Made by a program: the position numbers and the translations under genes. DNA of 64,000 bases from Cyanophora paradoxa CCMP329 (taxonomy: Eukaryota > Plantae > Glaucophyta), in contig QPMI01000017.1 of NCBI GenBank assembly GCA_004431415.1, positions 682,001 to 746,000 of the forward strand, in the 5' to 3' direction. The notes below the pieces were generated by a model that was given only the letters and a program-made list of their open reading frames with translations, did no database searches and was not told the DNA's origin. Below are positions 37,841 to 63,333 of the stretch, piece by piece. Each line of letters begins with the position of its first letter. Position 1 is the stretch's first letter.

Positions 37841-37842
37841 AA

Positions 37843-40800
37843 ATGATCAGAGGCGCGTATACGTATGCATGCAGGAGTGCTTCTCGCTCGAGCTCAGCGC
37901 CATGCATATGGCCATGGCCAGCTGCAGCTATTGTCTTCGGGCTCTGGTTAATAGCGATTGCGCCGGCGGCTCCGGCCGCTAGAGCGCAGGTCGTGATCTT
38001 GCCAACATCTAGCACTGTCTGCGCTGTTGGAGCGCCCTGCAGCGTGGCATGGAGCTCCGGAGACGGCTACAGTTATGCCAGCATTTGCCGCCAACCCGAA
38101 GGGGGTCGCGACCAACTTTGCTTCACCAAATCAAGCAGCGCGCCCTGGGGGGCAGAAGGACTGGCTCGTTTTACACTTCTCAGTAATGAATACTGGTATT
38201 TATGCAATGCCAAACGCGCTATTGCCATTGGAACCGGTGGGAGGTGCGTATGGGGCGCGCGGGGCGATCTAGATCTTCGGGTCCAGCTTATAATTAATGT
38301 TGGAGGCGATCCGCCATTCGCATACAGATGCACGGGGTACTTCATCATCTCATATTTCTGGAAGGACCCTTCAATTTCTTTATTACAAATCTCTCACACG
38401 GTCCGCTCTGTAGAATTTGAAGGCGGTACGTATACGCTACTAGTACTTGATCTACTTGACGTGTCAAGGTTCTCGTGATCAAATACATGCGCAGCTGAAG
38501 TAGCGATCGAGTCAAGCTCAGCATCCGCACGCGCGTGCACCGCACATGTGCCTTGCAGATTGAGCTGGAGCACCTCGTGGCCTCGCACGTCTAACAGAAC
38601 ATCGTGGTCAGTGAGTTTTAGGATATGCAGCATGAACGCCACACAATCAGCCGTATCCTGGTCGTTTGTGTGGGGTGAGGGTTGTTCTTCGGTGCATAGT
38701 TTTGTGCATCAACAGGACTCAAGCGCTGCGTCAACGTCCGCGGAAATCAGCATTTATATACCATACTTTGCCTTTCGAGTCGGTTGTGAATTCAACGATG
38801 AATTTTGGTATGCAATAACCTTGCGCGGATCATTATATTTAATTAAAATATGTACACATTCTGGCAGGTGCGATGCGTTCATAATTGTCGCCATCGACGA
38901 CGCGTTCATGGCAAAGCGTGCCATTACGATTGTTGCGAGCCCTATTCTTGTGAATAATTGGCACGACTGGTCGTCGGATAAATGCACAGCCTCAAGATCT
39001 CGATTCTTACAAGCTTTGGATGGATATGCACGCTCTGAGAACGAGGGAAGGGGGTGTGGAGTCTACTGGACTGCCCAAGTCGAAATATACCTTCAAATTA
39101 GGCTCGAACTTCCGCCAGTAGACGTTTACATATGCCCTTCTCCATCGTACTCCAGTTCTTCCTGTATCAATGTGCGGAGCGATTTTCGCACATTTATTCG
39201 CATCGCGATCGAGTTCCAGTTCTCACGTGCACGTCTAATTATAAATCTACACGCAGATTTTCATCTCGACAACAGCGAACAGCGCAACATTCTACCCATT
39301 TTTAGAGGATGTAAAGAAGATTTGTGGGTAAGAGCGTACGACAGACAATTGTTTTGATTATCATTTGCCATTCGTGTATATATATTTATATATTGCATGT
39401 TCTATCGATTCGAATTCTCGAATTCGAACTCCGGATCCAGTCTTATTGCTCTGATTTTCGGTTCTGCTACAGGGAAACGCTCAAATGCAATGCGTCCTGG
39501 GTTATTCGGCCTGCGCATGCCAGATGGGCTGAGAGCGATATGTCGACGTCTATCGACGGGACGCGTCCTGTTCTGTTAATGTACACCGGAGTGGCAATCT
39601 CAGAGAGCACAGCGTCGTCGTGTGCGACCTCGGCTCCCAAATGTTCAATATCCTGGTCGTGGTTTGCCACCGGATCCATCTTTTCAAATGGAGCCGGCCG
39701 CGTGCACATATGCAAGAATGTGCATGCCTATATAAACGAGAGGGGTTGGCCAAGTTCTTTGTCTGTAGCTGGAATTCTTCAATCAGGGTCCTGTGTGAAG
39801 GTAACTTCCCAAGACCGCTTGTAATGTTAATAATCATGATCATGCATATGATCATGATCATGAGTAGATCGGTTCTTCTGAAAAGTCGTCAATGGACGCC
39901 GTGATAACTGACAGCATTATCGCCCAAGTCTGCGGGTGCGCACAAGACTGCGCTGTCTGCTCCACTGCGCAGTACTAGTGGGCTTGTTCAATTTACGGGG
40001 CTGTCGTAGGGACCACATCACCACATGCGATGCGATGTGGATCCTGAACGGAGACGATTTCAAGAGTCTGAGGCTTGTGGGAGATAAAATTACAATAGCA
40101 AAAGCCTCGACGGCTTGCTGGAGCCCGCATGGAGCCGTCACCGAAACCTGCTTCCTGTCATGGATAGGAGGGCTGTTACCGATTGAAATCTATGTCTGCA
40201 AAGAAAATAGTTTTGTCAGAGATTCGTGCATGGTGGTAAGTTATTCTTGGTATGCGCACGCTTCGAGCTACGAGCTGTAATTTGCACTGATGAGCCTATA
40301 TATATCCCAACCTACGACAGATTGAAAGAAATTATTCTTCACCTGCACGCAGTTTCACTTACCAACCTGCGAGAGATGTAGTTTCTCGCATTTGCGGGTA
40401 TGTAGGTTTTCAAAAAAAAGTGCACGTATACAAAATATATCTCTCATTAATGATTCCATCTCAAAGTGCAGAAAAGTTTCTTTGCAGCGCATTCTGGGTG
40501 GTACGACCAGCGGGGCAGACAAACACTAATAATACATTGGATGAATCGAGCCCGCTAGCTTTGCACCTTGCTTACACCGAAATCCTGCCTTCCACATCTT
40601 CTCGCTGCTCTTCCACGTCGGGAGTATCCTGCAGAATTCTCTGGTCAGGAGCCTTTTCGAAATACGACATTTACTTCTGCAAAGAACAATCGTTTTCATC
40701 TGCGTCCTGCGTCACTCTTGCGTCCTCGATTTCAACAGCGTCTTTCGAACCGAAGAATCTCTGGGATCTGTACGTTACCCAAGGAACTGTCTATCGATTG

Positions 40801-43379
40801 TGCGGGTGCACTATTTGCGAAGGTGACTTATTTTGCAATTGCGCACATGACATGTCATGTTTTCGAAGGGAGGGGGATATCTCGTGCTCTGGTTTCTGGT
40901 TCATTCGCCCGAACGGTCAGCCCGAGTCGAATCACTTTTCCGAGGCCTCTCGCTATCTTGCGCTACGATCCGACGAGATTGTACTTTCTCCATCCTCGAG
41001 CTCCGCGGGCTATTCGAGCTCGACGTGCTCCACTGGAAGTCGACGGTGTTCGATCTCTTGGACTGGACTTCCTTACCCCTCTTTTGCAATCTACATATGC
41101 GGTTGGCAACTACGATCCCATCCGTTCGACACTAGCTCAAAACTATCGTTCTGTAGTGTGGTAGGCCCTTGCATATGCATATTTGCGCCTTCGCGTTCAG
41201 GTAGCAGATCGTGATATTGCATGCGTTCAGGTAGCAGATCGCGTAACGCGGCAGAATGCTTCGTTTACAATCGAAATTGCTGCAGTTGTAAAAGCCTGCG
41301 GGTGAGTATCTGATATCGATATTTATATTGAATGTTGATTAATTCGGTTTCATGACAATGAACCAAATGGCAGAACCGGATTAGTCGGCTGCAACGCCTA
41401 CATTGTCGTCGAGGCTCAATCACGACTTCCTACAATAAAGAACGCAAGGAATGCTTTGCAATCCACCGCCGCATACGCACTTCAGAGAATTGCAATTGCA
41501 ATCGATGTGCTTCCCATTAAAATAGAGGCGTTCTCGTGCACTTCGCAGCTGTCTCCAATAAACTGCACTGTCGATTGGCTCGTCGACCCCAAGCATATTC
41601 TGAGCGAGCCCGTCGTAGCTAAGCTTGCCGCATCCACAAACATCGATCTGGCATTGTGCCCCATGGCCAACTTGACCGAGCTCGAGCTCGAGCCTACAAT
41701 GATATTGATGGCTCGTCAATGCCGAAACCTGCGGACATATACCTCAAATTCGGTGCGTCTCAAAATTCAATGCAAGTCCAGATTAACATGCAACTGACAA
41801 TACGGCGAATAATCACCATGCGACAACATATTTATCTAGCTTGCACTTGAGCTTGCGAACGTCCACTCTGAGAAATTTGCGCTCGATGACATCGACACCG
41901 ACATACGTACATGCAATCGCGAAAAGTAAAACTTGACTTCTATGTTTTTAAAACTTGGTTTTAGTGGGTATAAACTGCGTTTCCGCAGTCCTTGCAAGCA
42001 TTTGGCCATGCTTTTCTCGAAAAACGTTCAAACGCAAGTCGAGGAAGTTGTAATTCTGGATGTAACCATTTTCAAACCTACGATCGCGATCAATACCAAT
42101 GCTTCTTCATCGAGCTGCTGGGATAGTTGCATCGTCACCTGGAGCAGGGAAGCCAACGTCAACATATTTTTGTGTCCGTTCGCCAAACTCCTCGCCGACT
42201 CTTGTGTTGAGGTGAGCAAAAAGCATGAATGCGATCATGTTTATTGAGGTGCTTTAATATCTGAGAAACGTTTCGCATTCACGTTCAGATTGGCTCAAAC
42301 ATACAGGGGACATCATTCAAATTCGCACTCAAGGAGAGCCAGTACGACGCACTCTGCAGGTACGCATGCGTTCCACGGTTTCATTCCTATCTAACACTAT
42401 TACCTCTTCGGTTTCATTAATATTCTTCTTCTGTCTAACACTATACGACCGCAGATTTAGAGAATCTGCGTATTCGTATGTGAATTGCTCGGCTTTTGTT
42501 GTTGTGCAACCACTGCCTGAGTTCAAGGATGACTTCAGCATGACTCCAGTTGAACTGAGAGGTCCTCCTCGGTCGCAGCTGCAGCCGTCAAATTTTGCAA
42601 CGGGATTTTATTCACAGCTGCAGGAGGAGCGTCTTCTGAAACTTAAATCATCGCTCGCCATAGTCCTCCCTATTCTAATTTCTGGAGTTGTTTCATTGTG
42701 GATAGCACGAAGATGCAGCAGCTTCGATAGAGCGAACTCAATGCAGGAAAACGTGCGACGACTCAGTGCGGGCCACGCGTTACTCTTCCTCGCACAAGCC
42801 CTCTTCATGGCTCTGGCTGCGGGCCTTCCAATGTGGACTGGAGCTGGGGCGAACGAGCCCTCCTCCCCGTTTAGAATGGATCTGCTGCGTGTACATACTC
42901 CAGGGGGGAGCAAAACGTTAATCGAGATCTGCGATGAGGTGACATCGTCTCGTTATCAAGACAGAATCCCAGAATGCGAACTTGCGTGGACCTTTTTCGC
43001 CGCATTTGTGACCGAAATAGCTGGATTTGTCATTTCGTTGATCGGCGTCGCAAGCAATATTCGTTCGTATTTGAACCAGTCAATCCATCCTTCGCACATG
43101 CCCTCTATACTTGCTCTGCACGTTACGTGCGTCTTTCAATCTACAGCGGTTCTAGTCCTTGTTCTTGTCGCTTCGGGTAGATACGTCGGGATACCCCTGC
43201 TCATTTCAGCCCCTCTGGGCCCGTGTGTCGGCCTGCAGCTAGCCGCAATTACCACAGCTACTGCCGGCTGTTATGGCAGCATGCGCGCTCTGCATCTCCG
43301 TGGAGCGATTTTCGCGGCGCCGCCTCTTGGAGACAGTCGTCCGTCTGCTCCCGTCTTCCCGGTCCGTGATTTCATCTAG
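37843..43379 (+). CDS. Predicted surface receptor: signal peptide, about 9 Cys/Ser-rich extracellular repeats, a TM helix and a claudin/PMP22-like C-terminal multi-TM module (spliced, lower GC than its neighbours)
   Basis: Signal-like IVFGLWLIAIAPAAPAARA-Q. Repeats of the form xI..S...C....C.(I/L/V).W...(D/E)IY.C...SC ... C.(G/A)FW.(I/V)RP. ORF 42366-43379 has LAIVLPILISGVVSLWI, then ALFMALAAGLPMW...C...C...FVTEIAGFVISLIG and further TM segments. Confidence 0.55.
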
Positions 43380-43707
43380 ATCTTGAATCGCGATATTTGA
43401 AAAGCACCGCAAGCCCCATCCCTTTCTGCAAATTTGTGATCATGACGCCCACGTGTTCGATTCTGCAGACGCAGGCGGCAACGCATGGCATGCGCACGAT
43501 AGATCCGGAGATCGCAGGTTTAGGGGGCAATTACAAGTACCAATCTCCCAGCTCTAGCTAAAACCTCCTATGTCCCACATATTAAAACGCTTCCTGAATT
43601 TCGAATGGCAAAGTAGCTGAAAGTGTATATCGTAAACACATTGAAGAAATACATAAATTGAGTCCAATACCCAATCAATAATTTCGGTGTTCACCCCCTT
43701 GAGCTTC

Positions 43708-44701
43708 CCCCGACCGCGAGCTGGGGCCGGGGCCGCCGGCCGCGCCGACACGATCGGCCTCATGGCCTTCGTCGCCACCGCCGCCGCCTACGGCTTCAAG
43801 TACGACGACGTGCGCCGCGAGCTCCAGATTAAATTTTCTAGTCGGGGCGCTCTTTTGATATTTAATCTTTAGATCTTATTATTGGGGCGCTTTCTTCTTA
43901 AGGCCTTTCGCTGTTCGGCGCGCAGGACACGAAGCTGGCGGTGCTGCACCGGATGTGGGACCTGGCGGATCCGCCGGGCCGGAGGAGTCGGTGGCGCAGG
44001 CGGTGCGGGGCCTGAAGGACAGCGTCGCGCGGCCCCGCGCCTACGTCAACGCCATCCAGGCCATGTCCCGCTTCAAGCGGGTCCGCCCCTCCCCTCCCAC
44101 CTCCTCCTCGGCCTCTAGATCTTCTCCCAAGCCTAGCCTGGCCTGCATCCAACGACCCCGCCAGATCCTGGAGGTGTCGGCGAAGATGTCGGCGGGGCTC
44201 TCGGCGGCGGAGATGGACGAGTACATCGACACGTACCGCGCCCTCGTCGGCGAGGTCCCCCAGGAGGCCCGCGAGCGCGTCCTCGCGGTGCGCCCTGCTT
44301 GTTCAGAAGAATTCCGGGGCGCTGCACGGTCCGCTGACCACGGGGCCCGGGGCCCGCGCGCGCGCGCAGCACCTAGGCCTGCAGGTCGCCGGCGGGATCA
44401 AGACCTGGGGCGCCGCGACCGTCGCCGAGTCGCAGGCGCGCCTGCACGCCCCCGAGCTCGGGCCCGGCCCGCCGCCGCCGCCCCCGCCGCCCGCGCCGCC
44501 GGCAGCGCCGCCGGCGCCGCTGGAGGCGCCGAGCTCGACGGCGTCGCTGGCCCGGTCGGGCGCCCCCTCCGTGCAGTCCCACCGCTCCCTCGCCCACTCC
44601 GCCTCCGCCTCGGCCTCGGCCGCCGGCGACGCCCCCGCCCCAGCGGCCGCCCCCGCCCCGCCCCCGCCGCGTCTAGGCCCCCAACTCCGCCCCAAGCGTG
44701 A
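43708..44701 (+). pseudogene. Partial 3' duplicate of the AXDND1-like gene (copy of 34351-35328, introns included)
   Basis: Near-identical exons and related introns (ADTIGLMAFVATAAAYGFKYDDVRR...ILEVSAKMSAGLSAAEMDEYIDTYRAL...PTPPQA*). The copy carries extra small insertions, one of them frameshifting at about 43964-43983. Confidence 0.85.
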
Positions 44702-44912: not shown

Positions 44913-45420
44913 GCGAAGACCAGTTTTCCTTGACTTGAAGCCTGGAAACCAACTTCTCTCTCATTCCGATCTTCGAATTCCTTAAGCTTCCGCGGTTCTA
45001 GCGAAGACCAGTTTTCCTCGACTTGAAGCCTGGAAACCAACTTCTCTCTCATTCCCGTCTTCGAATTCCTTCCGCGGTTCTGCATGGAACCAGTTCTCCC
45101 TATAGCTAGCTGTCTCCTGTAGATTTCGGCTTCCTCGCAGTGCGTCGCGTACGCCTTGCTCTTCGTTGCGCGGTTCTGCATGGAACCACTTCTCCCTAGC
45201 TGTCTTGCTCGATCTCCTCTAGATTTCCACTTCCTCGCACTGCGCCGCGTACGCCGCACGGAATTTCTTAAAACTTCCGAAGTTCTCCCTAGCTGTCTTG
45301 CTCGATCTCCTCTGGATTTCCACTTCCTCGCACTGCGCCGCGTACGCCGCACGGTACCCGTGCCGCCTGATCTACTTTTGACTGCATCAAGCTTGCACCG
45401 CAGCACGTGCACCGAAGCAC
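44913..45420. repeat. Compound tandem repeat (units of about 80-90 bp), copy 1 of a dispersed repeat family
   Basis: GCGAAGACCAGTTTTCCT...GAATTCC occurs twice and (GCATGGAACCA)...TTCTCCCTAGCTGTC...CGCGTACGCC three times. Homologous to 50840-51125. Confidence 0.85.
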
Positions 45421-47958: not shown

Positions 47959-50421
47959 ATGCCGATTTTTCTCGACTTCGCCGTGCCATTCGGCATACAG
48001 CAGACGCCGAGGAACGCGTTCCTGCCTGTCGCCTCGGATGGCCCGCCGGATCGCTTCGACCCATTCCTCGACGATCGCTTCGATCACGCCTACTTGGGCG
48101 ATTGTACGGCTCGCCGACCGCGATCGCGAGCACTTGCTATATATCGAATTCGAGTGACGTTCCGCGCGCAGTGCATCGTTGGGCGAGTGAGCCCGATGTT
48201 TCCGCCGACGTGAAGGAGGCCGCCCAGAAGTGAGCCGGAGGGCGCCGCGCGTCTCCCGCGCATCGCTCATCTAACGCGGGCTCGCGAAGGACGTTCGAAG
48301 CCTGGCGCCACCCGACCGGCTCGCCGAAGCGCGTCGGGATGGCGCGGAGGGCGCTGCAGGTCTGCCCCCACATGTCTGAGGCTTTTTATCTCCTCGGCTG
48401 CGAGGCGGAGACCCGCGAGGTGCTTTGAAATGCGTCTGCGCGCGATTCGCCGCTGAAGTTTCGCAGGAGGCGCTGCGCTGGTTCGAAAAAGGCGCGGAGG
48501 CGGGCCCGCTGCTCGTCGGCACGCAGGAATTCGAGGCGGCTCGCCGCGAGGGGCACGCTTTCGAACGACCCCTCATGCGCAGCTTCTATCGCGTGCGCAT
48601 GCACCCTTGCATTTGCACATGCATGCGCATGCGTGCTTGAATTCATGATCAAACCCGTCGCGATTAATTATAATATTGATATCTATTCGGCGCCCCCGCG
48701 CGCGCAGTGCCTTTTCGGGGCGGCGAACACGCTGCGCAAGATGGGCAGGTACAAGGAGGCGTACGCGAAGTACAAGCGCCTCCTCGAGTTCGACGCGAAC
48801 CCGTGCGCGCCACGGCCGTGGCTGCGCATGCCCCCGGCCCCTCGAGCTCGAGCTCGGTCGGGATGCAGTCTGCGCCCCACGGCCGCGCGCTGATCGTGAC
48901 CGCGACGGGCCTTCGTTCGCAATGGCAGGCACGCGTACAGCTCGGCGATCAACCCGTACCCGAGCTTCGTAGAGTGCCTGCTGGGCCTTGGCAGGTGGGG
49001 CGAGGCGGCGGCGTACCTCTACTCGCAGGAGGAGGAGATGCTGGCCCTCGCGAAGAAGCCCTCCTCCTACCTCACGTGGACCTACACCCGCATCCTCGTC
49101 GCTCTCAAGGCCCGCGCCCCCGTTCAATACTAATTCTTCAATCCGATTTGCATCTTGTGTCGTCCTAAGAGCCGCCACGCAGCTGGGGAAGGTGCCGGAA
49201 CTTCAGGAGCAACCCGTCCTGAAGGACCTGCTGACCGCCTTCTGGGACGGCGTCTGCGCGACCTGCGCGCGCTTCCACTCCTGCTGCGAGCGCGAGCCCC
49301 CGAGCGCGGAGCGGCTCGCGAGGGGCCACGTCTGCGTGCCGGACCCCGTGCTGGCGCTCCTCTCGGGGGACTCGCTCCCCGAGGGGCGCGACCCGCCCCT
49401 CGTCGAGGCGCACTCCGAGGCGGCCGCCCGCAGCTACGTCCGCCAGTTCGGCAAGCACTGGCGCGGTGCGCGCACGCATGCGCGGTCCCTGCAGCTGTCT
49501 AGATCTGGATCACAAGCACACACGTTTTCGCAGTCCGTTTCTAGATCTAGTCCGTTTTCGCAGTCCGATTTTCGCAGTTGCACCAGTACTAATACTCCGA
49601 ATATTCAATCTATTTAATTTCTAGATTCTCACTTGCAATTGGGGGTGCACGCTCATGCCGCGTGCGCAGCGGAGCCGGAGGCGCTCGCAAAGCTACTCGC
49701 GATGGACCGCATCGTGCGGAGCCGCTGCGGCGGCAATGCGCCCGACCGCGAGTGCCCCCTGAAGGTGCCTCCGCCCGCCCCGCGCCCCGGCCCCGCCGAT
49801 CGCGACTCGGGCCGCGGGGGCAGGTGATCGAGGAGTTCGGCTGCCCGTGCTGCGGATTCTCGGCCATGGAGCTCTTGGGCGCGAGCCCGAGTTCGAACTC
49901 GAAGAGCCCGTCGCCCCCAGCCGCAGCCGCAGCGGGCACGAAAGCGGCTGCCCGCGGGGGCCCCTCGAGCTCGCCGCCGCCCCCGACCGCGAGGCAGCCG
50001 GCGTCCGCGCCCGCGGCGCCTGAAAACCGCAGCGGGGAGAACGAGCCGCCGCCGAACGACGTGCAGGCGTGCGGCAACTGCGGCCGCTCGGGGGACGGCC
50101 TCATGCGGTTCGGCTGCGCCCCTCCAGCGCCCCCCCGAGGTCCCCCGCGCCAGGCCGAGGCCGAGGCGGGTTGGTCAGGTGCGGGGCGTGCCGCCAGGCG
50201 CACTACTGCGGAGAGCGCTGCCAGCGCGCCCACTGGGGCGCCCACAAGGTTTGCAATTAATATTGGGGCCCTCCGGGGGCCCCTCCCCCGCTCCCTTAAG
50301 CTTGGCCCGCCGCGCACGGCCGACCACCCCGCAGGCGGCCTGCAAGGAGGCGGCGCAGAGGGCTGCCGCCGCGCCTAGCGCCGCCACGTTCACCGCTCGC
50401 CTCGCAGCTCTCCGGACGTAG
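47959..50421 (+). CDS. ST7-like TPR protein with a C-terminal MYND zinc finger (spliced; start approximate)
   Basis: EAWRHPTGSPKRVGMARRALQVCP..SEAFYLLG, EALRWFEKGAEAG...RSFYR|CLFGAANTLRKMGRYKEA, and MYND CGNCGR...LMR|CGACRQAHYCGERCQRAHWGAHK|AAC. Confidence 0.7.
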
Positions 50422-50839
50422 ACTCAGATTTCGTCCAACTTGCAATCACGTTGGGCGATATTCGAATCCCTTCGTCTCGCCCATGAGCAGCGGCATGCGC
50501 AGCCCGCGCCTGCAATCCGCTGCATATTTCCGAGTCTCGAGTTCTGTTGACGTTGCTGCCAGCTTGGCAGCGCTGATCATGATCATGATCCATATGCAAA
50601 TCCTTCGATTCGAGCTTAGAAAGTTTCAAACTACTTCTGTATAGAATTTCGCCAGATTCTGAGCTTGAGACATCTGCAGCTGCTTTCCCATGCCTATCAA
50701 AAAGTAAAGGCTGCCAGCCGCTGTGCAGCTGCAGTTAAATATGCACATTTGTACATGTACATGTGTAATCTCGCTGATCGTGATCATAAAATCAAACCTC
50801 TCGTGATCGTGATCGTGTAATCTCGCTGATCGTGATGGG

Positions 50840-51125
50840 AAAACCAACTTCGAATTCTCTCTCGCTCCGGGCTCTCCCTTGGGCGGTTCGGCATGGAACC
50901 ACTTCTCCCTAGCTATCTCCTCTAGATTTCCGCTTCGTCGCACTGCGCCGCGTACGCCGCACGGTACCTTGCGCGGTTCTGCATATGCATGGAACCACTT
51001 CCGAGTTCTCCCTAGCTGTCTCCTCTAGATTTCCGCTTCCTCGCACTGCGCCGCGTACGCCGCACGGTACCCGTGCCGCCTGGACTACTTCTCACTGCAT
51101 CAAGCTTGCACCGCAGCACCGCGGC
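50840..51125. repeat. Copy 2 of the dispersed tandem repeat family (homologous to about 44945-45410)
   Basis: GCATGGAACCACTT...CTCCTCTAGATTTCCGCTTC..CGCACTGCGCCGCGTACGCCGCACGGTACC occurs twice, followed by CTGCATCAAGCTTGCACCGCAGCAC. Confidence 0.85.
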
Positions 51126-51898
51126 CGCCTACCGAGCACGCGCCGCTGCCCGCAGCCGAGCACGCTGCCCGGCACTCGTGCTTGAGCTTGCACCGCAAAA
51201 CCGCTTGCGCCGCTAGCTGCCTAGCTGTGCCGCTGCCCGCAGCCGAGCACGCGTGACCGAGCCGAGGGGTGACCACTGTGACCACCTAAAATCAAGCTTA
51301 AGCTTAAGCTGCCCGCAGCCGAGCACGCGTGACTGATTATACATTTCGATACCACTGTGACCACCTAAAATCAAGCTTAAGCCTATGCATCTGCCTCTGC
51401 CTCTGCCTCTGGCTCCTCATGGCCATGGTCATGATCATGATGGGACCCGGTCTCGGACTCTGATTCCGGGGCCAAGAAGGCCTCGCAAATCGGAAGCCGC
51501 AGGCTCCTGTGCGTTACACTCGACGGTCAGCGATTCAGCAGCGCGCGCGTCGGAGGCGTGGCGACTAGACCTAAGGGACAAGGGACGAACCGGAGGAGTG
51601 CTATCGAGGGATCGTGGATCAAGTCCATGTCGGGGGGCAGATCGACGGCCATGCGAACCTCTTCGCAGAACGTCGAGGTCGCAAGGAAGAGCTGACCCGG
51701 ATTCGAAGTCAGTGATTACGGGAAGGTTGAGAATTAAAGAGGAGACTGCGATATCGCAGCGCCGGCTCGCCTTGTGAGCGGCGGCAGAGGCCGCGGCTTT
51801 CTCCGCCTCGCCGCCGGATGACCGCGCCAGAGCGGCGGAGATGCTCAAAATCCTTCCCGCGATGTAGGAAGCGGCCATGTCGCGGAGCGTCGGATAGA

Positions 51899-52192
51899 AC
51901 ACATAGAGAAACGCGGCGTTTAAACCCTCGGCTTATCTTAATTGATCTTGTTTATATCTCTCGTATATTTTATATCAATCAATCGATAATCTGTGTGAAA
52001 TCTATCGAATTATTTAAATATTTTGATTTTTGTGTATTTCATTTATAATTTATTGATGTTCTATGGTAAATTTATCTTAATTTCGATTTGTCTTACTCGA
52101 ATCAATCGTGAATTTGTATAAGTTTCCGAATAATATAACTGGATCTTAATTAGATCTTGCCTCCGGTTTAAACGCCGCGTTTCTCTATGTGT
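51899..52192. repeat. 294-bp terminal inverted repeat forming an incompletely paired AT-rich hairpin
   Basis: Perfect 28-bp arms: ACACATAGAGAAACGCGGCGTTTAAACC (51899-51926) and its reverse complement (52165-52192). The interior pairs in many 3-6 bp helices separated by bulges. Confidence 0.9.
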
Positions 52193-52310
52193 GATTTTAA
52201 CGCAATAAACGCGATTAATATGCAAATTTGATATAATCACGATTGACGGAACATAAATTTGTGATATAATCACGATTGAAGTAGTCCACCTCCCATTCTA
52301 TCGTAAAACG

Positions 52311-52690
52311 CAAAAATTCACACAGAGTTGCATTACGTCCAATTAAACAATCGATGAGATTGCGGGAAACAAAAATGACCCCATAGTTGCATTACGTCCA
52401 ATTAAATAATCGATGAGATTGCGGGAAACAAAAATGACCCCAGAGTTGCATTATGTCCAATTAAACAATCGATGAGATTGCGATTCGATTTTTACTGTAT
52501 CAAAAATGACCCCAGAGTTGCATTACGTCCAATTAAACAATCGATAAGATTCCTGTTAAATTTCTACTGTATCAAAAATGACCCAGAGTTGCATTATGTC
52601 CAATTAAACAATCGATAAGATTGGATTCTGTTTTTTACTGTATCAAAATTGTGTTTCAAGTGTAACATGTCCAATTAAACAGTCGATAAT
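52311..52690 (+). repeat. Subterminal iteron-like tandem repeats (5 full copies and 1 partial)
   Basis: Core CAAAAATGACCCCAGAGTTGCATTAYGTCCAATTAAACAATCGATRAGATT starts at 52311, 52370, 52429, 52501, 52573 and (partial) 52644. Periods are 59, 59, 72, 72 and 71 bp. Confidence 0.9.
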
Positions 52691-52695
52691 CAATG

Positions 52696-52972
52696 TGTAA
52701 CAGGTGAATCCCAAGGTGTAACGGGTGTAACAGGTAAATCCCAAAGTTTTGGATTTTTCATCTCCTATGAGGAAAGTTTGGGAAACACCTGTTACACCTG
52801 TTACATGACACTATAATCAATGTAAGGAATCGAATATATTAATGCTTTGTTTGATAGATGTAACAGGTGAATCCCAAGGTGTAACAGGTGTAACAGGTAA
52901 ATCCCAAAGTTTTGGGTTTTTGGCCTCCCTAGGAGCGAAGTTTGGGATTTACCTGTTACACCTGTTACACCT
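52696..52972. promoter_or_regulatory. Two copies of a palindromic TGTAACA(GG)/(CC)TGTTACA array, candidate replication origin
   Basis: Copy 1 spans 52696-52805 and copy 2 spans 52859-52972. Copy 2 has a perfect 32-bp stem (52877-52908 with 52941-52972) and a 32-nt loop. Confidence 0.55.
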
Positions 52973-53020
52973 GACGATATTCAATAAGACATGTTATATT
53001 TCTTCAAAATCTCAGTGTGA

Positions 53021-53418
53021 TTAACTCGGAAATCGCGCTGCTATCTGCTTCTCCGCTTTCTCCAACCCTGAAAAGATCTCTGTTATTCTCTCATCTATCA
53101 ATTTAGATATTACGGAGGTCTTACTTTGCGCTTCGGTTCCGCAAGTGAATACATCAATCGCTAACATTCCTTGGTCAGAGTAACAATGAGCGGTGCAATG
53201 GCTCTCATCAAGAAGTAATACCATCGCAAAACCCGGTGGCGAAACACCACCATCGAAAATCTCGCAATGCTTGTGAACAACTCGGATACCTTGCTCTTGT
53301 ATAATAGATTGTAAAAATTGCATTAACCACGTTGTTGTGGTCTCCAAGTTTCCAATCCCACCATCAATGGATGATTGAACTTGTAATCTAACATTACATG
53401 GGAACCGCGATGATTCAT
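53021..53418 (-). CDS. speD: S-adenosylmethionine decarboxylase proenzyme, short prokaryotic/viral type (1-bp frameshift near 53381)
   Basis: VLLLDESHCTAHCYSDQGMLAIDVFTCG contains the autocleavage E-S motif. The N-terminus MNHRGSHVMLDY lies in an adjacent frame, and the span is 398 bp (one short of a codon multiple). Confidence 0.88.
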
Positions 53419-53458
53419 TTATGAATTATATAGAAAAATAAAAAACGAAATTGGTAGG

Positions 53459-53608
53459 ATGCGAACCATCTTAGCGAAAGTATTTCCGTATGAGTTGGTC
53501 GATATCATAATGCTCCATTATCATAAGACATGTCCGAATTGCTTTGATACTTGCATAATAACCAAAGGTAAATGCGGAAAGATGCTCATTTCTCTTTCGA
53601 AACTCTAA
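53459..53608 (+). CDS. Small hypothetical 49-aa protein with a CxxC motif
   Basis: MRTILAKVFPYELVDIIMLHYHKTCPNCFDTC...KL* fills the gap between two genes. Confidence 0.35.
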   Translation: MRTILAKVFPYELVDIIMLHYHKTCPNCFDTCIITKGKCGKMLISLSKL

Positions 53609-53877
53609 TCAAAATATAACATAATCGGTTTCTCTTCTATTACGATTCCCCATGTAGTCTTTTTTCTGTATGCATGAGAGTGTTTCTTAGAACACTGTCT
53701 ACATCCTGACCCCTTTATATGGTTAAATCCATAAGTCTGAAAGACTTTATTACATTGCAGGCATCTCACAGATACCTTCTCTTGCGCCTTTTTATAGACA
53801 GTTTCGGTGTAATCAAACTTATCAAGTCCATGAACCATTATCGCAGACTCAATAAATCTCCTTGTTTTTTCATCCAT
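53605..53877 (-). CDS. DUF723-like zinc-ribbon protein
   Basis: FIESAIMVHGLDKFDYTETVYKKAQEKVSVRCLQCNKVFQTYGFNHIKGSGCRQC matches the F..KA..VHG.KYDY...C..H..F....NH..G.GC..C repeat common in large DNA viruses and phages. Confidence 0.75.
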   Translation of the reverse strand: MDEKTRRFIESAIMVHGLDKFDYTETVYKKAQEKVSVRCLQCNKVFQTYGFNHIKGSGCRQCSKKHSHAYRKKTTWGIVIEEKPIMLYFD

Positions 53878-53898
53878 TCCTCTATATATACCGTAGAT

Positions 53899-54743
53899 TT
53901 ATGGTAGCGGATCGCTACCGCCGATGGGATTATAGAGATTTGTGGTTAGATATTGACCATAGCGGTTTCCTCTTGCGATTGCATCGTTTCTTTCGGCATA
54001 CATAATAACCGTGAATGTTCCTTGTTGTGTTGCCCTAATTATATATTCATCATCTTGCGTATCCAAAAGAGGCAATGAATGGAAAGCAAGACCAAAATTA
54101 TCGACGGGGACTACTTGAACTGTAATACGTGGTCTTGCTCCATCGGTTCTCCTACATAATGCATAAATATCCGCAGGTAGCTTTTCGGTATATCTGTAAT
54201 GGTTTCCCAGCGGTTCTATTATGTCAATTACGGCAGTTTGCAGGTTTATTATAATCGTGTTTATTTTAATAATGTAAGGTTCATTCATACCCGGGCAATA
54301 CGTTCTAATTCTCGTGTTTTCATCATCAGGATTGGGTTGGTCATTTACGATTAGAGGCGCTCCAATGATACCACCAACTCTTAGTCCGTCCCAATATAAG
54401 CGCCTCCGGATCTACATTTAATTGCGCCCCTTCTTGCTTCGTAAGCAAAGTTGGTAACCTTATTATCATCATTGTAACTGTCGGGATCTCCATAATGAGC
54501 GTTGAAGTTCGCATTTGTTACAAGAAGTCTCGTTGTTTTCACCACTCCACTGTTGGTGTCACATCGCAACTCTCTCAGTCTCAGCATATGAGTATCACCG
54601 AAGGTATTGAGAGTTGGTGCGATTTCTGTGGATTCGAGACCATCGATATTATCGATAATAGCATGCTGTAATACGTGGTTTGCGGGCGCAGCTAACGATA
54701 GTTGCGCAGTTAAGATGCGTTCAGGTGGTGCAGGTGCAGCCAT
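53899..54743 (-). CDS. Fibre-associated protein A, about 281 aa (ORFs 54381-54743 and 53899-54288 joined across a 1-bp indel at 54390-54392)
   Basis: Adding one G gives ...SGGAYIGDGLRVGGIIGAP...PNPDDENTRIRTYCPGMNEPY... The C-terminus LPADIYAL...VQVVPV...FTVIMYAERND resembles the C-terminal module of fibre proteins. Paralog of 54763-55607. Confidence 0.6.
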
Positions 54744-54762
54744 TTAATATATCGAAACATAA

Positions 54763-55607
54763 TTATGGGACGGGATCTTCGGGGTATGGTTCATTATAGA
54801 AATTCGATAGTTGAGCATCGGGATTTATGCAGTTAGCAACAGCCCATGCCGCCTCATCATTACGATATCCATAAATCATAATATCATAACCTCCAACCTC
54901 AGATGCCCAAAAATCAAAAGTGTTGGGTTGTGTTGCAGGATTTCTTATAACCCATCCACGCCCTCCATGACCTACCGCTTGAACAATGAATGTATATCCT
55001 TCTACACCTCCATTCTGAGAGCGACACATGGAGTAAATCGCTTTCGGTAAAAGTTGATCAGCCATTTTCCAAGGTCCGTCAATACCTTGGGTTGGGTAGC
55101 ATCATTTATATTTACATTTGCTCGTATGATAGCAAAAGCATATGGGGAATCTCCACATGGAAGAAACATACGCATTCGTTGGGGATTATCTGCATGTTCA
55201 GGTAAGGTGTCCGGAATATCGTTAAACGCAGCAGAAGAGCCAAGCATTCCGGATACTCGGCATCCACCACCAATAACAGCGCCTCCTGATCGGATAACGG
55301 CGGCGGCTCGCGTATTGTCGAATTGGAATGCTTTGATATCTACACCATACGCATCGGGTTCTCCGTTTGCTGATTGAAAATTCGCATTTGTAACCAATAA
55401 TTGAGTTGTTTTTACCACACCCGAATTCTTATCGGCTCGTAGTTCTTTTACGCGAATCACACTGTTTCTATCGAATGCATTACCTGAGTTAGCGCGTTCT
55501 GTCGATTCCATACCACGAATCTCATCGGACACTTCATGTTGTCTGAAATGAATTGCGGGCGCACCCAATGCGTAAACCGGTAATTGCACACGATTGTATT
55601 CACCCAT
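54763..55607 (-). CDS. Fibre-associated protein B, about 281 aa (ORFs 55002-55607 and 54763-55065 joined across a 1-bp indel near 55090)
   Basis: Shares ELRxDxNSGVVKTTxLLVTNANF, RSGGAxIG, LPxxIYxxCR, (I/M)YxxRND and NxYN...DPxP* with protein A. Confidence 0.6.
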
Positions 55608-55656
55608 TGCTTCTTTTACTAAGAAGATAAGAAAAATAAAGCGATCTGTGAGTTAA

Positions 55657-58600
55657 TTATGGTATACCATGACATGTCCAATGGATAGTGCATGTGATAC
55701 TTCGACTTTCAGATAGAGTAGGGGATGCTATGAATGTCACATAGATTGTTGTGTAGTTAGCTGTGGAGTTTGAGATTCCAATTCTAAAATCTACATCCCC
55801 TGGGTTTGTTGCAGGAGTTCCTTGAAGTGTGGCATTTACAACAGGTGTCTGAGTGTAAAAAGGTGGGTCCCAATATAAAACATATGCATGCTGTGTTGTT
55901 TGACCCGCGCTTATAACACCACTTGTGGCTTGATATTTTCCTGATTTGAAACGTCTTTCTATATCATACCAAGATGGAACTTGGCTGATTGTGTTTGTGG
56001 TTCCTGCATTCATCGCATAAAATGCTCTTGCATAAGCATTTCCACGACAGAGCAGTGTTTTATCATAAAAGTTTGCGGAATTGTGGAAGAACCATGTTTC
56101 TTGGTTTGTGGGTGATGCAGGAGTTACTATTGAACCCGATCCTACATACATAGTATTATTTGCTGTGATCGTATTGGCTGTGAATGGATCAAAAGAAGGC
56201 AAATCTGAGATTTCTGATTTAGTGTGAGTATGGGCAAAATCTGTAATATTTGCCTTTGTGTGAGTATGTGCAAAATCTGTGATATCTGCTTTGCTGTGTG
56301 AGTGAGGACCGACAGATGTTGAAGCTGTTGGTTTTCCGAAGATATTATCCCAATGACAGTAACCACTGTGTGAAGTTACAGCAGGGTTTTTGCTCCATCC
56401 AACAGCAATTGGACCGGGTAAATAAATTCTTCCTTTCTGTCCATGAACACCAACTTTGGTTAGTCCTTCACAATTTATTCCAACATACTGTTTGAATTCC
56501 TTTGATGGGTCGATTGCAGTAGAATAGGCATTTACTCGTAAATATGTATACACAGTTGTTGGAGGATAAATTCCCACCACATCAAAGTATCTACAATTGT
56601 AATGACAAGCATAATAGATATAACAAGATTTCATTCCTGTTGGGACATTCCAATACATTTTACAGCTACTACAATCTTCATCAGAAGCAGCCCATGTGTT
56701 CGCCCAAGTATTTGTGTCCCCTGTCAATATTCCTCCGTTGTAATTTCTCCAATCACATGTGCGATCTGTGGAAATAATACTTGTAGCGTCAAAATTTGTG
56801 GGCGCTGTGTATGTTGGCTTGTTAATTAAATCATCATAATTTCCGGTTGTCGCAACAGTTGCAAATGTTGGTTTGTCTGTAATATCATTCCATAAATGAG
56901 TGTGAGCTGTTGCCGGAAATGTTAATGGTTTTTCTGTTATACTACTCCAAGGGTGTGTATGAGCATCGGGCGGAAACAGCAAAGGTTTATTTGTAATACC
57001 TATCCAATCATGAGTATGAGCAGCAGGTGCAAATGTTAATGGTTTGTCTGTGATGTCCGCCCATAAATGAGAGTGAGCAGCAGGAGCAAATGTTAACGGT
57101 TTGTCTGTGATGTCCGCCCATAAATGAGTGTGGGCAAAATCAGTAATTTGAGACTTTGTGTGAGTGTGAGTAGTAGGAGTGAACGCTAACGGTTTGTCTG
57201 TGATGTCCGCCCATAAATGATTGTGGGCGAAGTCTGTTATTTGAGACTTTGTGTGAGTGTGAGCATCAGGAGCAAAGGTTAATGGTTTACCTGTAATGGT
57301 TGTCCATGCATGAGAATGAGCATCAGGAGCAAAGGTTAATGGTTTATCGGTGATGTCGTTCCATAAATGAGAATGGGCAGCAGGAGCAAAGGTTAACGGT
57401 TTGTCTGTGATGTCATTCCATAAATGAGAATGGGAAAAGTCTGATATTTGGTCTTTTGTGTGAGTATGAACATCAGGAGCAAACGTTAACGGTTTGTCTG
57501 TGATATTTGACCACGCAGGTGTGTGGTTCTGTATCCAACCTTGAACCACATTTGATGTGGTATAGTTTGGAATGCTTGCATTTGAAGAAACGATTAAATT
57601 TCTAATATGAACATTTTCAGCAGAAATGCGTAGATTATCAGGAATAACGATTGTTTGCTTTTTTGGAAAGCCAAAATAATCTTGCATATAATATCTCACT
57701 TTTGCCTTTCATCAAATGTCAATGCTCTGTTGAATATAATATATTCCCTACTGCCGTAATGAAATAGGCAACACCCATCCTACTAAAAGTGGAAGGTGGA
57801 AGATAATCCACTTCTGTAATGACTGTGCCTAAATCTTGTCCGTTAAATCCGAAAGTGCAGACATTTGAAGAAACTGTAAAGTCCCAATGATTCGGCGACA
57901 ACTCAGAATACGATGTGGGATAATTTAAGTGTGCTGCTGGGTAAGTCACACCATTGCTTGTATAAGAATGTATACCCATACTGCTACCTGTTGTCCCAAA
58001 GGATACTTTATTAGTTCCATCTGGTGAACTAAAATTTAAGAGATCTACCCACGGTTCCCAAAATCTATAAGAACCTGCAAAGAAGATGGTGATACCTTTT
58101 GACCAATCCACAGTTACGGGATACGGCATTCCAAATTCCCGGCTTGTATATGAATAAGTAGGTTGTTGGGCAATGTTTCGGTTATTGTAATCAGATCTCA
58201 ATTGAGTTATTGTGTTGTATCCTGACCATGGGAAGGTTACCCCGGAAATAAAGGGAATTGCCGTAGTTGCTCTATTTGCAATAAAGGCGTGACTGATGTT
58301 TATGCCGACAGGGACAACATCTAATCTTATTGTTAAGAGGCAATCTGGTATGGCAAAAGCGGGGTCTGTATTAGAAGTAACAGGATAATAGGGTGCGTCA
58401 TAGTATACATCAATGTTTGTATTTTTGTCTCCAATTTGAATTTTTCCTATAACATTCAAGTTGGATGAAATCGTAAGATTTGAGGAAATTGTTCCTCCTG
58501 TGAGAGGCAAGTAATCATGAGTGTGCGCAGAAGGGGCAAACGTTGATGGTTTGTCTGTGATGTCATTCCATAAATGAGTGTGGGCAAAGTCTGTTATCTC

Positions 58601-61600
58601 TGACTTTGTATGAGAATGGGCGAAATCTGTAATTTGTGACTTTGTGTGAGTGTGCGCAGAAGGAGTAAACGTGAGCGGTTTGTCTGTGAGATCTGCCCAT
58701 AAATGGGTGTGTGCAAAATCTGTAATCTCTGACTTTGTGTGAGAATGGGCGAAATCTGTAATTTGAGACTTTGTGTGAGTGTGCGCAGAAGGAGTAAACG
58801 TGAGCGGTTTGTCTGTGAGATCTGCCCATAAATGGGTGTGTGCAAAATCTGTAATCTCTGACTTCGTATGAGAATGGGCAAAATCTGTTATTTGAGACTT
58901 TGTGTGAGTGTGGTGATCTATCCATTCTTGAACCACATTTGAAGCTGTTAATGGAGCAATCCACTCCTGAACCACATTTGAAGCTGTAAATGGAGCAATC
59001 CACTCCTGAACCACATTCGATGCTGTTAATGGAGCAATCCATTCCTGAACCACATTTGAAGTGGTATAGTTTGGAATGATAGCATTTGAACCAACGTGTA
59101 AGTTGTTTAGATAGAGATAGTTTGCTGATATTCGCATATTATCAGGATAGTAAAGAGGTTGAGTTATAGGAAAGCCATACAGCTGTTGAATATAAAACCT
59201 TACCTGTTGCTTTTCAATCTCAGACAAGGCCCTGTTGAAAACAATAAGTTCGGCAGTCTCCCCCCATGCATGCCTTGATCCTATATTATTAAATGTTGAT
59301 GGTGGAAGCCAGTTACCAGCAAGAGTTCCTAAATGCTTTCCATTCATTGAATACGATATGCTATTTGAAGTCACAGTGGTGTCCCAGTATGCACATTTCC
59401 AATTCGTATATTCTTCAAAAGGCATATGCACAGTCGGGAGATTACTATATGTTGGCTGACCGTATTGCATGTTTATTCCAGCTGCTGCATTAATATATCT
59501 ACTCATGCCCCATTTACAGACAGGTGGTGACACAAACCAATCTATATGCGTTCCAAACACACATTCATGCACTCCATAGTTAGCGATATTAAGCACCCCG
59601 TTGGTGTAGTTTTGTGACCTCACACTTCCCACAAAGAAGAATGTTAATCCAGCACTCCAATCAACAGTATTTACTCTATTTGTTGCCAAATCAACAGTTT
59701 GACTACCATAGTTTAAGGTGAGTTGATTGTTTAGTAAAGGATTTATTTTATAGTATGATGTGTATGGTGAATTTCCACCCAGAGAAAATGATGGGATAAA
59801 TGGAACAGCCAATGTTGCTCGGTTAACAATAGTAGTCCCACCTGCATTTTGTAGATGGGCGTAGCCAGATGGTTTTGCAGCTATCAAACAGTTCGGAATT
59901 GTAAATGCAGGGTCAGTGTTGGATGTAATTGGATAATAGGGTGTGTCATAAGTCACATCTAAAACCGTCCCATGAGTTCCTAATTCAATGTTGCTTGACA
60001 CTTTGAGATTACCGGAAATGGTAAGATTACTTGACAGTGTCCCGCCTGTGAGAGGTAAGTAATCTGATAACCATTCTTGAACTACATTCGATGCTGTTAA
60101 TGGCGCAATCCATTCTTGAACCACATTAGAAGAAGTATAATCACTCTCTATGGTAGTTATTCTCGTTGCAAGTGCGGCATCCTCAGTTTGGAGTGCTGTA
60201 ATTGCCTCTTGTTGTGTATAAATACTCTCTTCCAAGCTATTTGTTTTTTCTTGAAGGCTCATAGTCGATACTGTGCCTGAGGTTGATGTAGTCATAATAA
60301 CGTTCGTCGCCAAGAGGGTGCCGGTTACTTTAAACTCATTAGTTCTAACAAGAATCTTGTTGTTATCCAATGGATATGGATTTAAAGGGTCTTCCGGAAA
60401 ACCGTATTTTTGCTGTAAATACCATCTAATATTTTGTAGTTCTGTATCTGAAAGGGTTCTACCATAACAAAGGAGTTCGCATAAATCGAATTTTGAAACG
60501 CTATCACCCACATGTATTTTATTGACATCTTGGCGTGGATATCTTGAATCGGCAGGAACAGATATTGTATCTCTATGTTTTCCATTTACACCAAAATGAA
60601 CAGTTGTGCTTGTTACTCGAATATCGAACATTGTCCAAGAATTCCCTTCTGTTGTTGATATTGGAATGCTCACTAAATCGTAGCCATTCTTATTGACATT
60701 CAAATACCCGCTTGTTTTAGTAATCAACCAACTGAGATTGTTTCCATTCACATGTGTTGAGCCGTCGATTCGTAAAACTGTTTCATTTGGAACGCTTGGT
60801 TTAAATCGAATGACAAATGAGACCGTAATTCCGCTGAAAGGAATAGTATCATAAAGAGTAGAAGTTTGATATTGATAATTGATGAATGAAAATGTGTTTG
60901 TGGTAGCCACCTGGTAGAACTTTTTACTATTTGGACCGAGGAAGCTGAAAGTAACACTGCCGTAACTAACAAGAGTGTTAACTACATTAATATAATTCCA
61001 AACTGAGCCGCCCCTTGCGTAATTTTTGAGTTCATAAACAAGCGCTCCACTCTTCCAATTATCAGAGTTTGCGTTAAAGTGAAGTAGGCAATCTGCTATT
61101 TCCCTTGGATTATATGTAGAGAAATCTTGGGATCCTCTCTCGAACTGATTTCCACTTAGGTGTATCTCTTTACCTACACTCAATGTATCATTGACTGTCA
61201 GATAACCTGTTATGGTTCCACCTGTGAGGGAAGGTAGTTACCTAACCAAGATTGGACAGTTGAAACTGCCGCCAAAGGAAGCAAAGCCGTAGCTAATTCG
61301 GTTCCATCTATGTAATTCTTGTTTTCTAAATAATCCTCTGTGACCACTCGTGATATTGTTTCGTTGTGTATGTTTTTTGCTGCTGCTCTCTGATTGATTT
61401 CCAAGACCCCTTGCTTATCAACATCATTATAATTGGTTTTAATCCACCCTATCTCACATTGCTTATAATCGTCTCGATCTCCAATTAAATCATCAGGTAA
61501 GAGCCGATCTCGACTAAATATTAACTTTGGTCTTGATCCATCAAGAGCGCTTACATCAGTAACGTTAATTTGGATTGCTGCATCTTTGTCTACAAAATTA

Positions 61601-63285
61601 ATTGGATCGGCTGGAAGAGATGGGATAGGTGGTAATGTAACTGTCATCGGGATGTCATCTGGGTAGTAACTTGTTAGATAGATGCCCGGTTTATTCTGCA
61701 TTACTCCAATACCTCCACCTGCTGCAACTAAATTAACTCGTGTAGGTGGTCTGATATATAATTCGCCTTCCATTGTGGTGCCTGCATTTATTCCATGGCG
61801 ATTGACGTAATACGCATCTAACATTAATCTTTCCTCTGTGTCTATATTCTTATAGAGACTCACACCATGTAGCCCATCATTCACAGCATCACCTGCTGAT
61901 GCGAACGTAGGTTGCTGATCGATTTCGTCCCAATTGTGTCTATGTGGTGCTGGTGGAAACTCTTCTGGTGCATCGATTTCGTCCCAAGTGTGTCGATGAT
62001 CTGCTGGTGGGAATTCTTCGGGTATTCTGTCAATATCCTCCCAATCGTGTCTATGATCCACAGGTGGAAATCTATCAGGTTTGTTTTCGATCTCGTCCCA
62101 ATCATGACCATGGGGATCAGGTGGATATGTTTGTGGTTTATTTCGGATGTCCTCCCAATCAACTATAAAATCGAAGAGATCAGGTGCAAATCCATCAGGT
62201 AAAAGCTGTTCGTCATATGGTTCGTAGCGATCGTATGTTATAAGGTTCGGATCGAAACCATCAGGTAACTCATTATCTTCTTCAAATCTTCGATCTTCAA
62301 GAGGTATAACATTCACATCTGGCGCAAGAAGCTCTTCTGTTGGTGGTTGATAAACTGTAAATACTGGTTTGTTTCGGACCTTCTCCCAACTCACGATATG
62401 TTGACCAAAGGCAACGTTCTCTTCTGCTGTGTATTCCCTTCCTGGCTGTTTTTTTGGTGTGAGATCCGGTGGATCCCATGGAAGCGGAAACGGAACAGGG
62501 GTAGGTCCGTAATGCTCAATGATTTCTCTTATTGTTTTCTCACTAACAAGTTTCTCACCGTTTGCATACACATTGCTACCGTGAATATTTCGCCATTGTC
62601 GGGTTCTAATACCAAGGTCTTTGGTGTTTGTCTTCAAAGGTAAATGGTGGCGATCCATTTCGACAAGGTCGGGGTGTAAATGAATGGCTACTGGTTGACT
62701 GGGGCTACTGTCGACCGTGATAGAGTCTTTCTCTTTGGAAGTATCCTGTGGAAGAGTGAAACCAAAAAGTGCGTTAGTTTCTGCATTGTCGACGATGTCC
62801 TTCGGATAAATACTGTTGGTGTGGCGAATCTGATTCTCTTCACCATGTGGGGCTACCTGTAATATCTGAGGGATTTGTGTTATCGCGTTTGATCCTTCAT
62901 TATAAATTCTCAAACCGCTACGATGAACTCCCTTCTCATCCTGGACATTGAATACCAAACGTCCGCTATCGAATCGTGTGGGAATATCGGGATGCGTTCC
63001 ACTGGTTTTAAGTTTCCGTGGTCTCCTTCGAGTTGCCTTGATCTCTGCAACCGCGTTTTTTTTAACATTGCCCAAACTGAAAGCAATGCTAACATCTTCT
63101 TTATCGGGATCGGTTTGGTTCACCGATAAAGCGTGAACCCGGGGATGAGTTTTCGATGGTTTATCGGCGCTCTGATCGATAGAAGCCGACCCTTTGATGG
63201 TGATGTTATCAAAGTTCACATGTTTAGGATTCGTTTTACCACCACCTGATACTGTCTGTAAATTTGCTGGATAATTGAAACTCAT
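55657..63285 (-). CDS. Giant virion fibre/adhesin, about 2540 aa, after repair of three 1-bp homopolymer indels (61228-61230, 57746-57748, 57700-57703)
   Basis: Repairs give YLPLTGGTITGYLTV and VGEYIIFNRALTFDERQKVRYYMQDYFGFP, both matching intact internal paralogous segments. The protein has phage-fibre-like HxH repeats (HTHTKSQITDFA; HxHLWADITDKPLTFAP), three LamG/ConA-like domains (EL..(F/Y).R.LS..E...(I/V)R.Y....YGFP) and a C-terminal gp53/H-lectin-like domain (F..TPVVNAT). Confidence 0.75.
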
Positions 63286-63333
63286 CCTGCTTGCTCTACT
63301 TATACAGATTTATTAAATTTAAGATAAGTAAAG

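Follow-up and report, generated by a model that had tools for sequence, protein, structure and literature searches.

A long, imperfect fold-back at the host junction of a multi-copy, probably polinton-like element in Cyanophora paradoxa

How polinton-like viruses (PLVs) without a protein-primed polymerase copy their ends and insert again into a host genome is the question raised by a junction in the glaucophyte Cyanophora paradoxa CCMP329. The junction lies within a 64,000-nt stretch of contig QPMI01000017.1 (the window), where GC-rich host DNA gives way to AT-rich DNA that begins with one arm of a large inverted repeat. An original prediction, made from the sequence of the window, took positions 51899–52192 for the opened hairpin telomere of a poxvirus-, asfarvirus- or chlorovirus-like genome, nicked at the stem base and joined to host DNA in an unusual event. 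We lean, if only slightly, towards a different reading, in which the junction marks the left terminus of an integrated, AT-rich element with many copies, likely a glaucophyte PLV, whose terminal 294 nt are predicted to fold back on themselves and likely prime the element's own DNA synthesis.

We compared the window with public sequencing runs, 16 of 24 of which hold approximately 80% of the words of positions 51300–56200, all from one organism. Four of these (X1, X7, X12, and X14), one of which is possibly the source of the window itself, were compared as contigs. The features at the terminus are as follows.

51353–51898, no strand assigned: host flank of 61% GC at single-copy depth (contig depth, GC), terminating in ...GGATAGA, a candidate target-site duplication
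51899–51926, plus strand: outer arm A of the perfect 28-bp stem, with the first base of the element (complementarity; contig starts in X7, in two families, and in X12)
51927–51966, plus strand: left side of an imperfect stem extension of approximately 40 nt, a 3 × 3 pyrimidine bubble first and then short blocks and bulges (1 of 2000 shuffles; pairing probability approximately 0.55)
51967–52124, plus strand: T-rich inner loop of approximately 160 nt that retains weak symmetry but has no predicted rod structure (folding, shuffles)
52125–52164, plus strand: right side of the imperfect stem extension (folding and alignment; sister-family contigs of X1 at 52112–52167)
52165–52192, minus strand: inner arm A' of the perfect stem (complementarity)
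52311–52689, plus strand: subterminal tandem repeats, 5–6 copies of 59–72 nt (repeat detection)
52695–52972, no strand assigned: second inverted-repeat block, two tandem units of approximately 163 nt, each with a 33–35-bp inverted repeat of 9-mers (repeat detection)

Each of the four runs yielded a single flank contig, at depths of 99.5, 18.4, 2.7, and 138.9, similar to those of host DNA at 50000–50897. In X1, X7, and X14 one contig (51353–51928) crosses the junction and reaches 30 letters into the element, one letter short of the 31 that our rule for a bridging contig requires, and the corresponding contig of X12 enters the element by 15 letters. A stop 30 letters in is what a branch of the assembly graph at 51899 would produce with 31-letter words. 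The join between host and arm is thus present in contigs of all four runs. The element, at 34–41% GC, is clearly set off from the host DNA (61–73% GC), and none of five telomeric repeat motifs was found near the junction. The predicted coincidence of the compositional boundary with the first arm base was not confirmed by base composition: the change point in GC content fitted best at 51933, with 51899 worse by 1.9–2.7 log-likelihood units. Composition alone therefore leaves the first base unfixed, and the exact position rests on the contig starts and stops.

These data support a true end of an integrated virus-like element that starts at the first arm base, not an assembly chimera. An artefact of assembly or of fold-back sequencing could draw on the frameshifts and single-base changes that set this copy apart from the common form and make local assembly errors possible, and on the possible identity of one run with the source of the window. 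The complete 294-nt unit nevertheless lies within single contigs of X7 and X12, the junction recurs in every run compared, and a fold-back artefact would produce a perfect interior where the observed one is degenerate; we regard this explanation as largely refuted and very improbable.

Several other features of the window were noted in passing. The flank at 51694–51738 can be read as a short stretch which we take to resemble a NUMOD4-like homing-endonuclease motif. A host repeat of very high depth lies at 50855–51388, approximately 500 nt from the junction, and again at 45042–45406, 6 kb away. Farther into the host side, a katanin-like AAA ATPase exon (26684–27658) is 100% identical to the EukProt model tig00000093_g3637.t1, a host gene segment of approximately 1 kb is duplicated at 34351–35328 and 43708–44701 (85% alike), and a 7-kb region at 36500–43500 has approximately 50% GC within host DNA of 70% GC, with a clear Pfam match in none of the four long ORFs tested.

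The anatomy of the terminus confirmed much of what had been predicted from its letters. The arms at 51899–51926 and 52165–52192 are 100% complementary over 28 nt and enclose 238 nt; allowing up to three mismatches, their sequence occurs in the window only at these two places, with no match expected by chance. All 11 short block pairs listed for the interior are present in register, with offsets of −2 to +1. When the first half of the interior was aligned globally with the reverse complement of the second, the score was 73, compared with 48.7 ± 5.6 in shuffled sequences; it was reached by none of 1000 dinucleotide shuffles and by 1 of 1000 half-wise shuffles. Deeper in the element, 10 of 1652 windows of the same size reached this score, all of them over the second inverted-repeat block (approximately 52640–53060). 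Examined by segment, the outer 40 nt are significantly symmetric (1 of 2000 shuffles), and the segments closer to the apex show weak symmetry or none (92 and 325 of 2000).

Symmetry of sequence did not translate into a folded interior. The whole unit is predicted to fold at −45.1 kcal/mol (z = −8.3), a strong score that is due to the arms: the interior folded alone gave z = +0.31, with 121 of 200 shuffles equally good, and with the arms held fixed 39 of 200 shuffled interiors folded equally well. From arm to apex, the probability of pairing near register falls from 0.99 through approximately 0.55 in the next 40 nt to 0.04 and 0.01. The view of the interior as more than a random loop thus holds for its sequence, and for predicted pairing only in the outer 40 bp or so; a stable rod is ruled out by the shuffle folding and the pairing probabilities. 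An apparent bias towards pyrimidine–pyrimidine mismatches was likewise dismissed as a special signal, as composition explains it (484 of 500 shuffles were as high). In a rod alignment of the interior 72 of 113 columns are paired and 41 mismatched. Measured against one such fixed alignment, 13 substitutions in other copies break a pair in six cases, create one in a single case and leave a mismatch in six, with no compensatory change among them, and the inner 160 nt or so show no sign of a pairing constraint. The accurate picture, as predicted by folding, is a 28-bp stem with a mismatched extension of approximately 40 bp and a loose loop of approximately 160 nt. We also observed that the core of the subterminal tandem repeats (52335–52689) recurs, 74% alike, within the interior at 51967–51989.

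A functionless relic of an old fold-back copying accident, passed on from an ancestor to all copies and now in decay, would account for the fading of symmetry towards the loop and for variants that break pairs uncompensated, and accidental annealing is offered as an alternative for comparable palindromes in a recent preprint (bioRxiv 10.64898/2026.07.28.741278). Neutral decay should, however, be more even than the contrast between perfect 28-bp arms and an interior paired in 72 of 113 columns, and a diverged sister family retains both outer sides of the structure. We consider such an accident improbable.

The terminus is not unique in the genome. In contigs, the element has 6–13 times the depth of its flank (the body approximately 6–10 times), which is a rough guide and not a copy number, and the terminal region stands at approximately 1.0–1.9 times the element body. 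The X7 contig covering 51899–52194 has a depth of 249 against 18.4 at the host junction, a ratio of approximately 13. A second X7 contig, of a sister family with seven differences, also begins at 51899 and reaches a depth of 2003, a ratio of approximately 109 to the host junction and roughly 110–130 times the flank; a contig of X12 likewise starts at this base. The similarity of the sister family is 88% or higher on each outer side, at 51899–51996 in X7 and at 52112–52167 in X1, with no contigs placed on the middle. Its depth ratio is comparable in order of magnitude to the number of published glaucophyte elements, 156. X7 also contains a second GC-rich flank of 255 letters joined to the arm, which is not among the contigs listed for X1; because the final 3 nt of this flank are identical to the body side, the end is possibly 3 nt longer. 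Subtracting the listed contigs from the bin depths left 311 depth units of contigs of approximately 31 nt over the left arm only (49 pieces unlisted), which fits, as indirect evidence, a dozen or so other flanks. Another X7 contig, on 51935–51996 (321 nt, depth 8.9), follows the end for approximately 60 nt before continuing into GC-rich DNA and is likely a truncated or solo end. Contigs of the element's own family and of the sister family share the start base 51899, so the terminus is stereotyped within a family of many copies and is not the product of a one-off event.

The orientation of the loop appears to be stereotyped as well. Contigs of X7 and X1 pass unbranched through the inner arm to 52194, where insertions of an inverted 'flop' isomer with varied flanks would make the graph branch just past the inner arm. 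No such isomer or strand-switch joint was present among the listed contigs of the two runs examined closely (X7 and X1). If both orientations were equally frequent and the flanks random, flop would go unseen with a chance of 0.06 given 6 ends and of 0.002 given 13, provided that the ends are independent and the assembler prunes nothing. A single orientation argues weakly to moderately against a flip/flop telomere; contigs drop rare forms and cannot show closed ends.

These observations bear directly on the possibility of a covalently closed telomere of poxvirus or chlorovirus type, exchanging flip and flop by concatemer resolution and opened and integrated as a rare event. The AT-rich loop with its incomplete pairing, and the tandem repeats behind it, do resemble the ends of Kaumoebavirus and poxviruses (PMC7909422). 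The loop, at 238 nt, is longer than the 102 nt of Kaumoebavirus (PMC7909422), many ends begin at one base, flop junctions are missing from both runs at the chances given above, and none of the 10 element ORFs scanned carries a large-virus core gene. Together with the PLV-like gene set described below and the unconstrained inner loop, this speaks against the telomere type first suggested, and we hold it to be quite unlikely. The premise behind that suggestion, that polintons have open ends and a hairpin therefore marks a large virus, is outdated by the terminal palindromes described for PLVs and virophages in 2026 (bioRxiv 10.64898/2026.07.28.741278).

The portion of the element inside the window amounts to 12.1 kb (51899–64000). 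Behind the repeats it encodes the following.

53021–53347, minus strand: S-adenosylmethionine decarboxylase (AdoMet decarboxylase; Pfam PF02675, E = 2.5e-12)
53605–53877, minus strand: zinc-finger fragment, HNH-endonuclease-like (domain scans)
53899–54743, minus strand: gene of approximately 280 aa, split by a frameshift into ORFs 54381–54743 and 53899–54288, likely a virion fibre or anchor protein (extra base at 54389; relatives)
54763–55607, minus strand: paralogue of the preceding gene, likewise split (55002–55607 and 54763–55065; extra base at 55088)
55657–63285, minus strand: three fibre-like genes (approximately 680, 1154, and 691 aa) with phage-tail repeats, the second with a Laminin-G-like domain (domain scans)
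63334–64000, plus strand: patatin-like phospholipase, interrupted by the end of the window (Pfam PF01734, E = 4.9e-24)

The second inverted-repeat block, situated in the terminal non-coding region, may contain a candidate origin or protein-binding sites. In all four runs the comparison showed one extra base at 54389 and one at 55088, so both paralogues are split only in this copy or assembly. An environmental relative of these paralogues, P0048, is unsplit at 274 aa, and two others, P0049 and P0050, end in C1q. A role as minor capsid proteins was considered for the paralogues and is unsupported: two relatives end in C1q, and the structural model (mean pLDDT 36) is unusable. For a 201-aa ORF of the element HMMER returned four relatives, a word-indexed search found none among 205 candidates, and the atlas gave no usable match. 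Viral contigs contained no relatives of this ORF, of the AdoMet decarboxylase or of P0048, nor any match to the arm motif or the repeat motif (0 each), and their one distant patatin relative (37%, on a 170-kb contig) is uninformative. In metagenomes, 31 loci with an 18-nt arm motif were attributed to chance, as they match at most 23 of the 28 arm bases and none of the 31 has an inverted copy. No double jelly-roll major capsid or minor capsid gene, A32-type packaging ATPase, polymerase or integrase was found among the ORFs in 51899–64000, and the element continues beyond the window.

Which lineage such an end belongs to is indicated mostly by the accessory genes. Table S6 of a survey of PLVs (PMC12220804) lists 156 glaucophyte elements, with AdoMet decarboxylase in 66, lipase in 89, A32 ATPase in 139, an rve integrase in 85, tyrosine recombinase in none, protein-primed PolB in 49 and primase-helicase domains in 38–40. 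Among 21 rows of this table AdoMet decarboxylase and lipases are combined only in glaucophytes, the three other groups with the decarboxylase having 0, 0, and 1 lipase. The lineage itself is poorly placed, as the capsid models of that study recognized a PLV capsid in only 2 of the 156 elements. The present element shares with the Cyanophora PLVs (PMC12220804) the AdoMet decarboxylase, lipase, HNH-type and phage-tail-repeat fibre genes and a high copy number. It is, like PLVs in general, a multi-copy, discretely bounded insertion whose GC content is offset from that of the host, and it combines the decarboxylase, a lipase and fibre repeats, which are accessory and not family-defining genes. The element works like a glaucophyte PLV and, judged by accessory genes with the defining genes beyond the window, probably is one; on present evidence it is not a new virus class. 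The terms 'hairpin' and 'palindrom' are absent from the text and supplements of PMC12220804 as available to us, and no element listed there was matched to the present one.

What could the fold-back do for such an element? Folding pairs the 3'-terminal base of the bottom strand, which ends at 51899, with a template strand that leads on into the genome. This is the geometry of a self-priming end, and it is likely used as one. In the cycle that we propose, the freed 3' end of the bottom strand would fold onto 52165–52192 and prime copying into the genome, and this priming would close the end, with the same loop strand retained every time. A retroviral-type integrase would then expose a 3' end at the stem base, by a nick between the inner arm and the body, and join it to host DNA, after which repair by gap filling would copy the unfolded 294 nt. 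Every insertion would in this way regain the same orientation and the same first base, as observed. Joining via the end at the stem base is a reasonable mechanism, and the cycle retains the original idea of opening there, as the usual path of a large family and with no exchange of flip and flop; enzymes for these four steps were not found within the window. Against self-priming, the interior contributes little stability and its substitutions lack compensation, and approximately one-third of the glaucophyte elements have a protein-primed PolB and need no hairpin primer (PMC12220804).

The latter point leads to the main alternative, an open-ended PLV with protein-primed replication, in which the fold-back within the TIR would only protect or mark displaced single-stranded ends, for packaging or for recognition by an integrase that uses the blunt duplex end. 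This model predicts the same integrated anatomy and accommodates the fixed first base and single orientation equally well, and a PolB of the required type is present in 49 of the 156 glaucophyte elements (PMC12220804). It leaves aside that the terminal base itself is perfectly paired, within 28 bp that put the 3' end on a template, and the palindromic ends of Halocafeteria elements prefer those without protein-primed PolB (bioRxiv 10.64898/2026.07.28.741278). We regard it as possible, though clearly less probable than self-priming.

A bolder extension of the self-priming reading would make glaucophyte PLVs hairpin-ended as a group, their own retroviral-type integrase opening the closed end at the stem base and inserting it, with the long mismatched loop leading to unequal arms and hence to regeneration of one orientation; we offer this tentatively, as rather unlikely. 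If true, it would couple an incompletely paired telomere in the style of large viruses directly to DDE integration, in a lineage of unrecognized capsid with perhaps a hundred such ends in a single genome. The alga can be cultured, and the end described here leads, apart from this extension, to predictions of a fixed nick at 52192/52193 on a closed end, a single loop strand, and snap-back reads.

Fold-back priming has a precedent in parvoviruses, small single-stranded genomes with an HUH nickase. In their rolling-hairpin replication the 3' end folds back and primes, and the duplex end, once extended, contains the palindrome in unfolded form; in minute virus of mice the left end keeps one orientation. 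The terminal hairpins of parvoviruses are similar to the present end in their fold-back 3' priming, but the HUH nickase is theirs, and none was found in the 12.1 kb of the element within the window. The telomeres of poxviruses, asfarviruses, chloroviruses, and Kaumoebavirus (PMC7909422) share with it an AT-rich, incompletely paired terminal loop beside repeats. These telomeres are covalently closed ends of free genomes and exist as two isomers, whereas the end described here has one orientation and a longer, mostly unpaired loop, and is integrated many times. Endogenous phaeovirus elements with a telomere resolvase (PMC13236599) are also integrated algal viruses for which hairpin ends are proposed in the free form; their hairpin site is internal, and a tyrosine recombinase acts at a separate att site, in contrast to a fold-back located at the host junction itself.

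In the literature, we found no description of a hairpin-ended Cyanophora virus, in a search that was light on subscription papers and preprint supplements. The portions available to us of PMC11296320, PMC12085832, PMC12344493, and PMC12220804, and of the preprints 10.64898/2026.10.13.758929, 10.64898/2026.06.19.733378, 10.1101/2025.10.09.676808, and 10.1101/2022.07.28.501842, contain no description of such an end, and the main text of PMC10120064 has no mention of paradoxa, palindromes or hairpins.

The closest parallel comes from endogenous virophages (subtypes 1, 2, 5, and 6) and PLV subtype 4 of Halocafeteria seosinensis, in which terminal palindromes adjoin the target-site duplications and are linked to replicases other than protein-primed PolB and to RVE integrases; a hairpin-priming model was proposed there (bioRxiv 10.64898/2026.07.28.741278). 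There as here, an integrated small DNA virus terminates in the fold-back, which lies at its extreme end and adjoins host DNA, and a role in priming is proposed. The Halocafeteria palindrome measures 52 nt and was found by a screen that tolerated no more than 10 nt of gap and four mismatches, whereas the present unit spans 294 nt around a 238-nt interior with 41 mismatches in 113 columns. It thus falls outside the definition of a near-perfect palindrome, and that screen would miss it. As far as the accessible literature goes, terminal palindromes of PLVs and the idea of priming are known from the 2026 preprint, and the long, mismatched form is new. Screens for short-gap palindromes miss long mismatched ends, and the frequency of fold-back termini among endogenous small DNA viruses may therefore exceed what has been reported.
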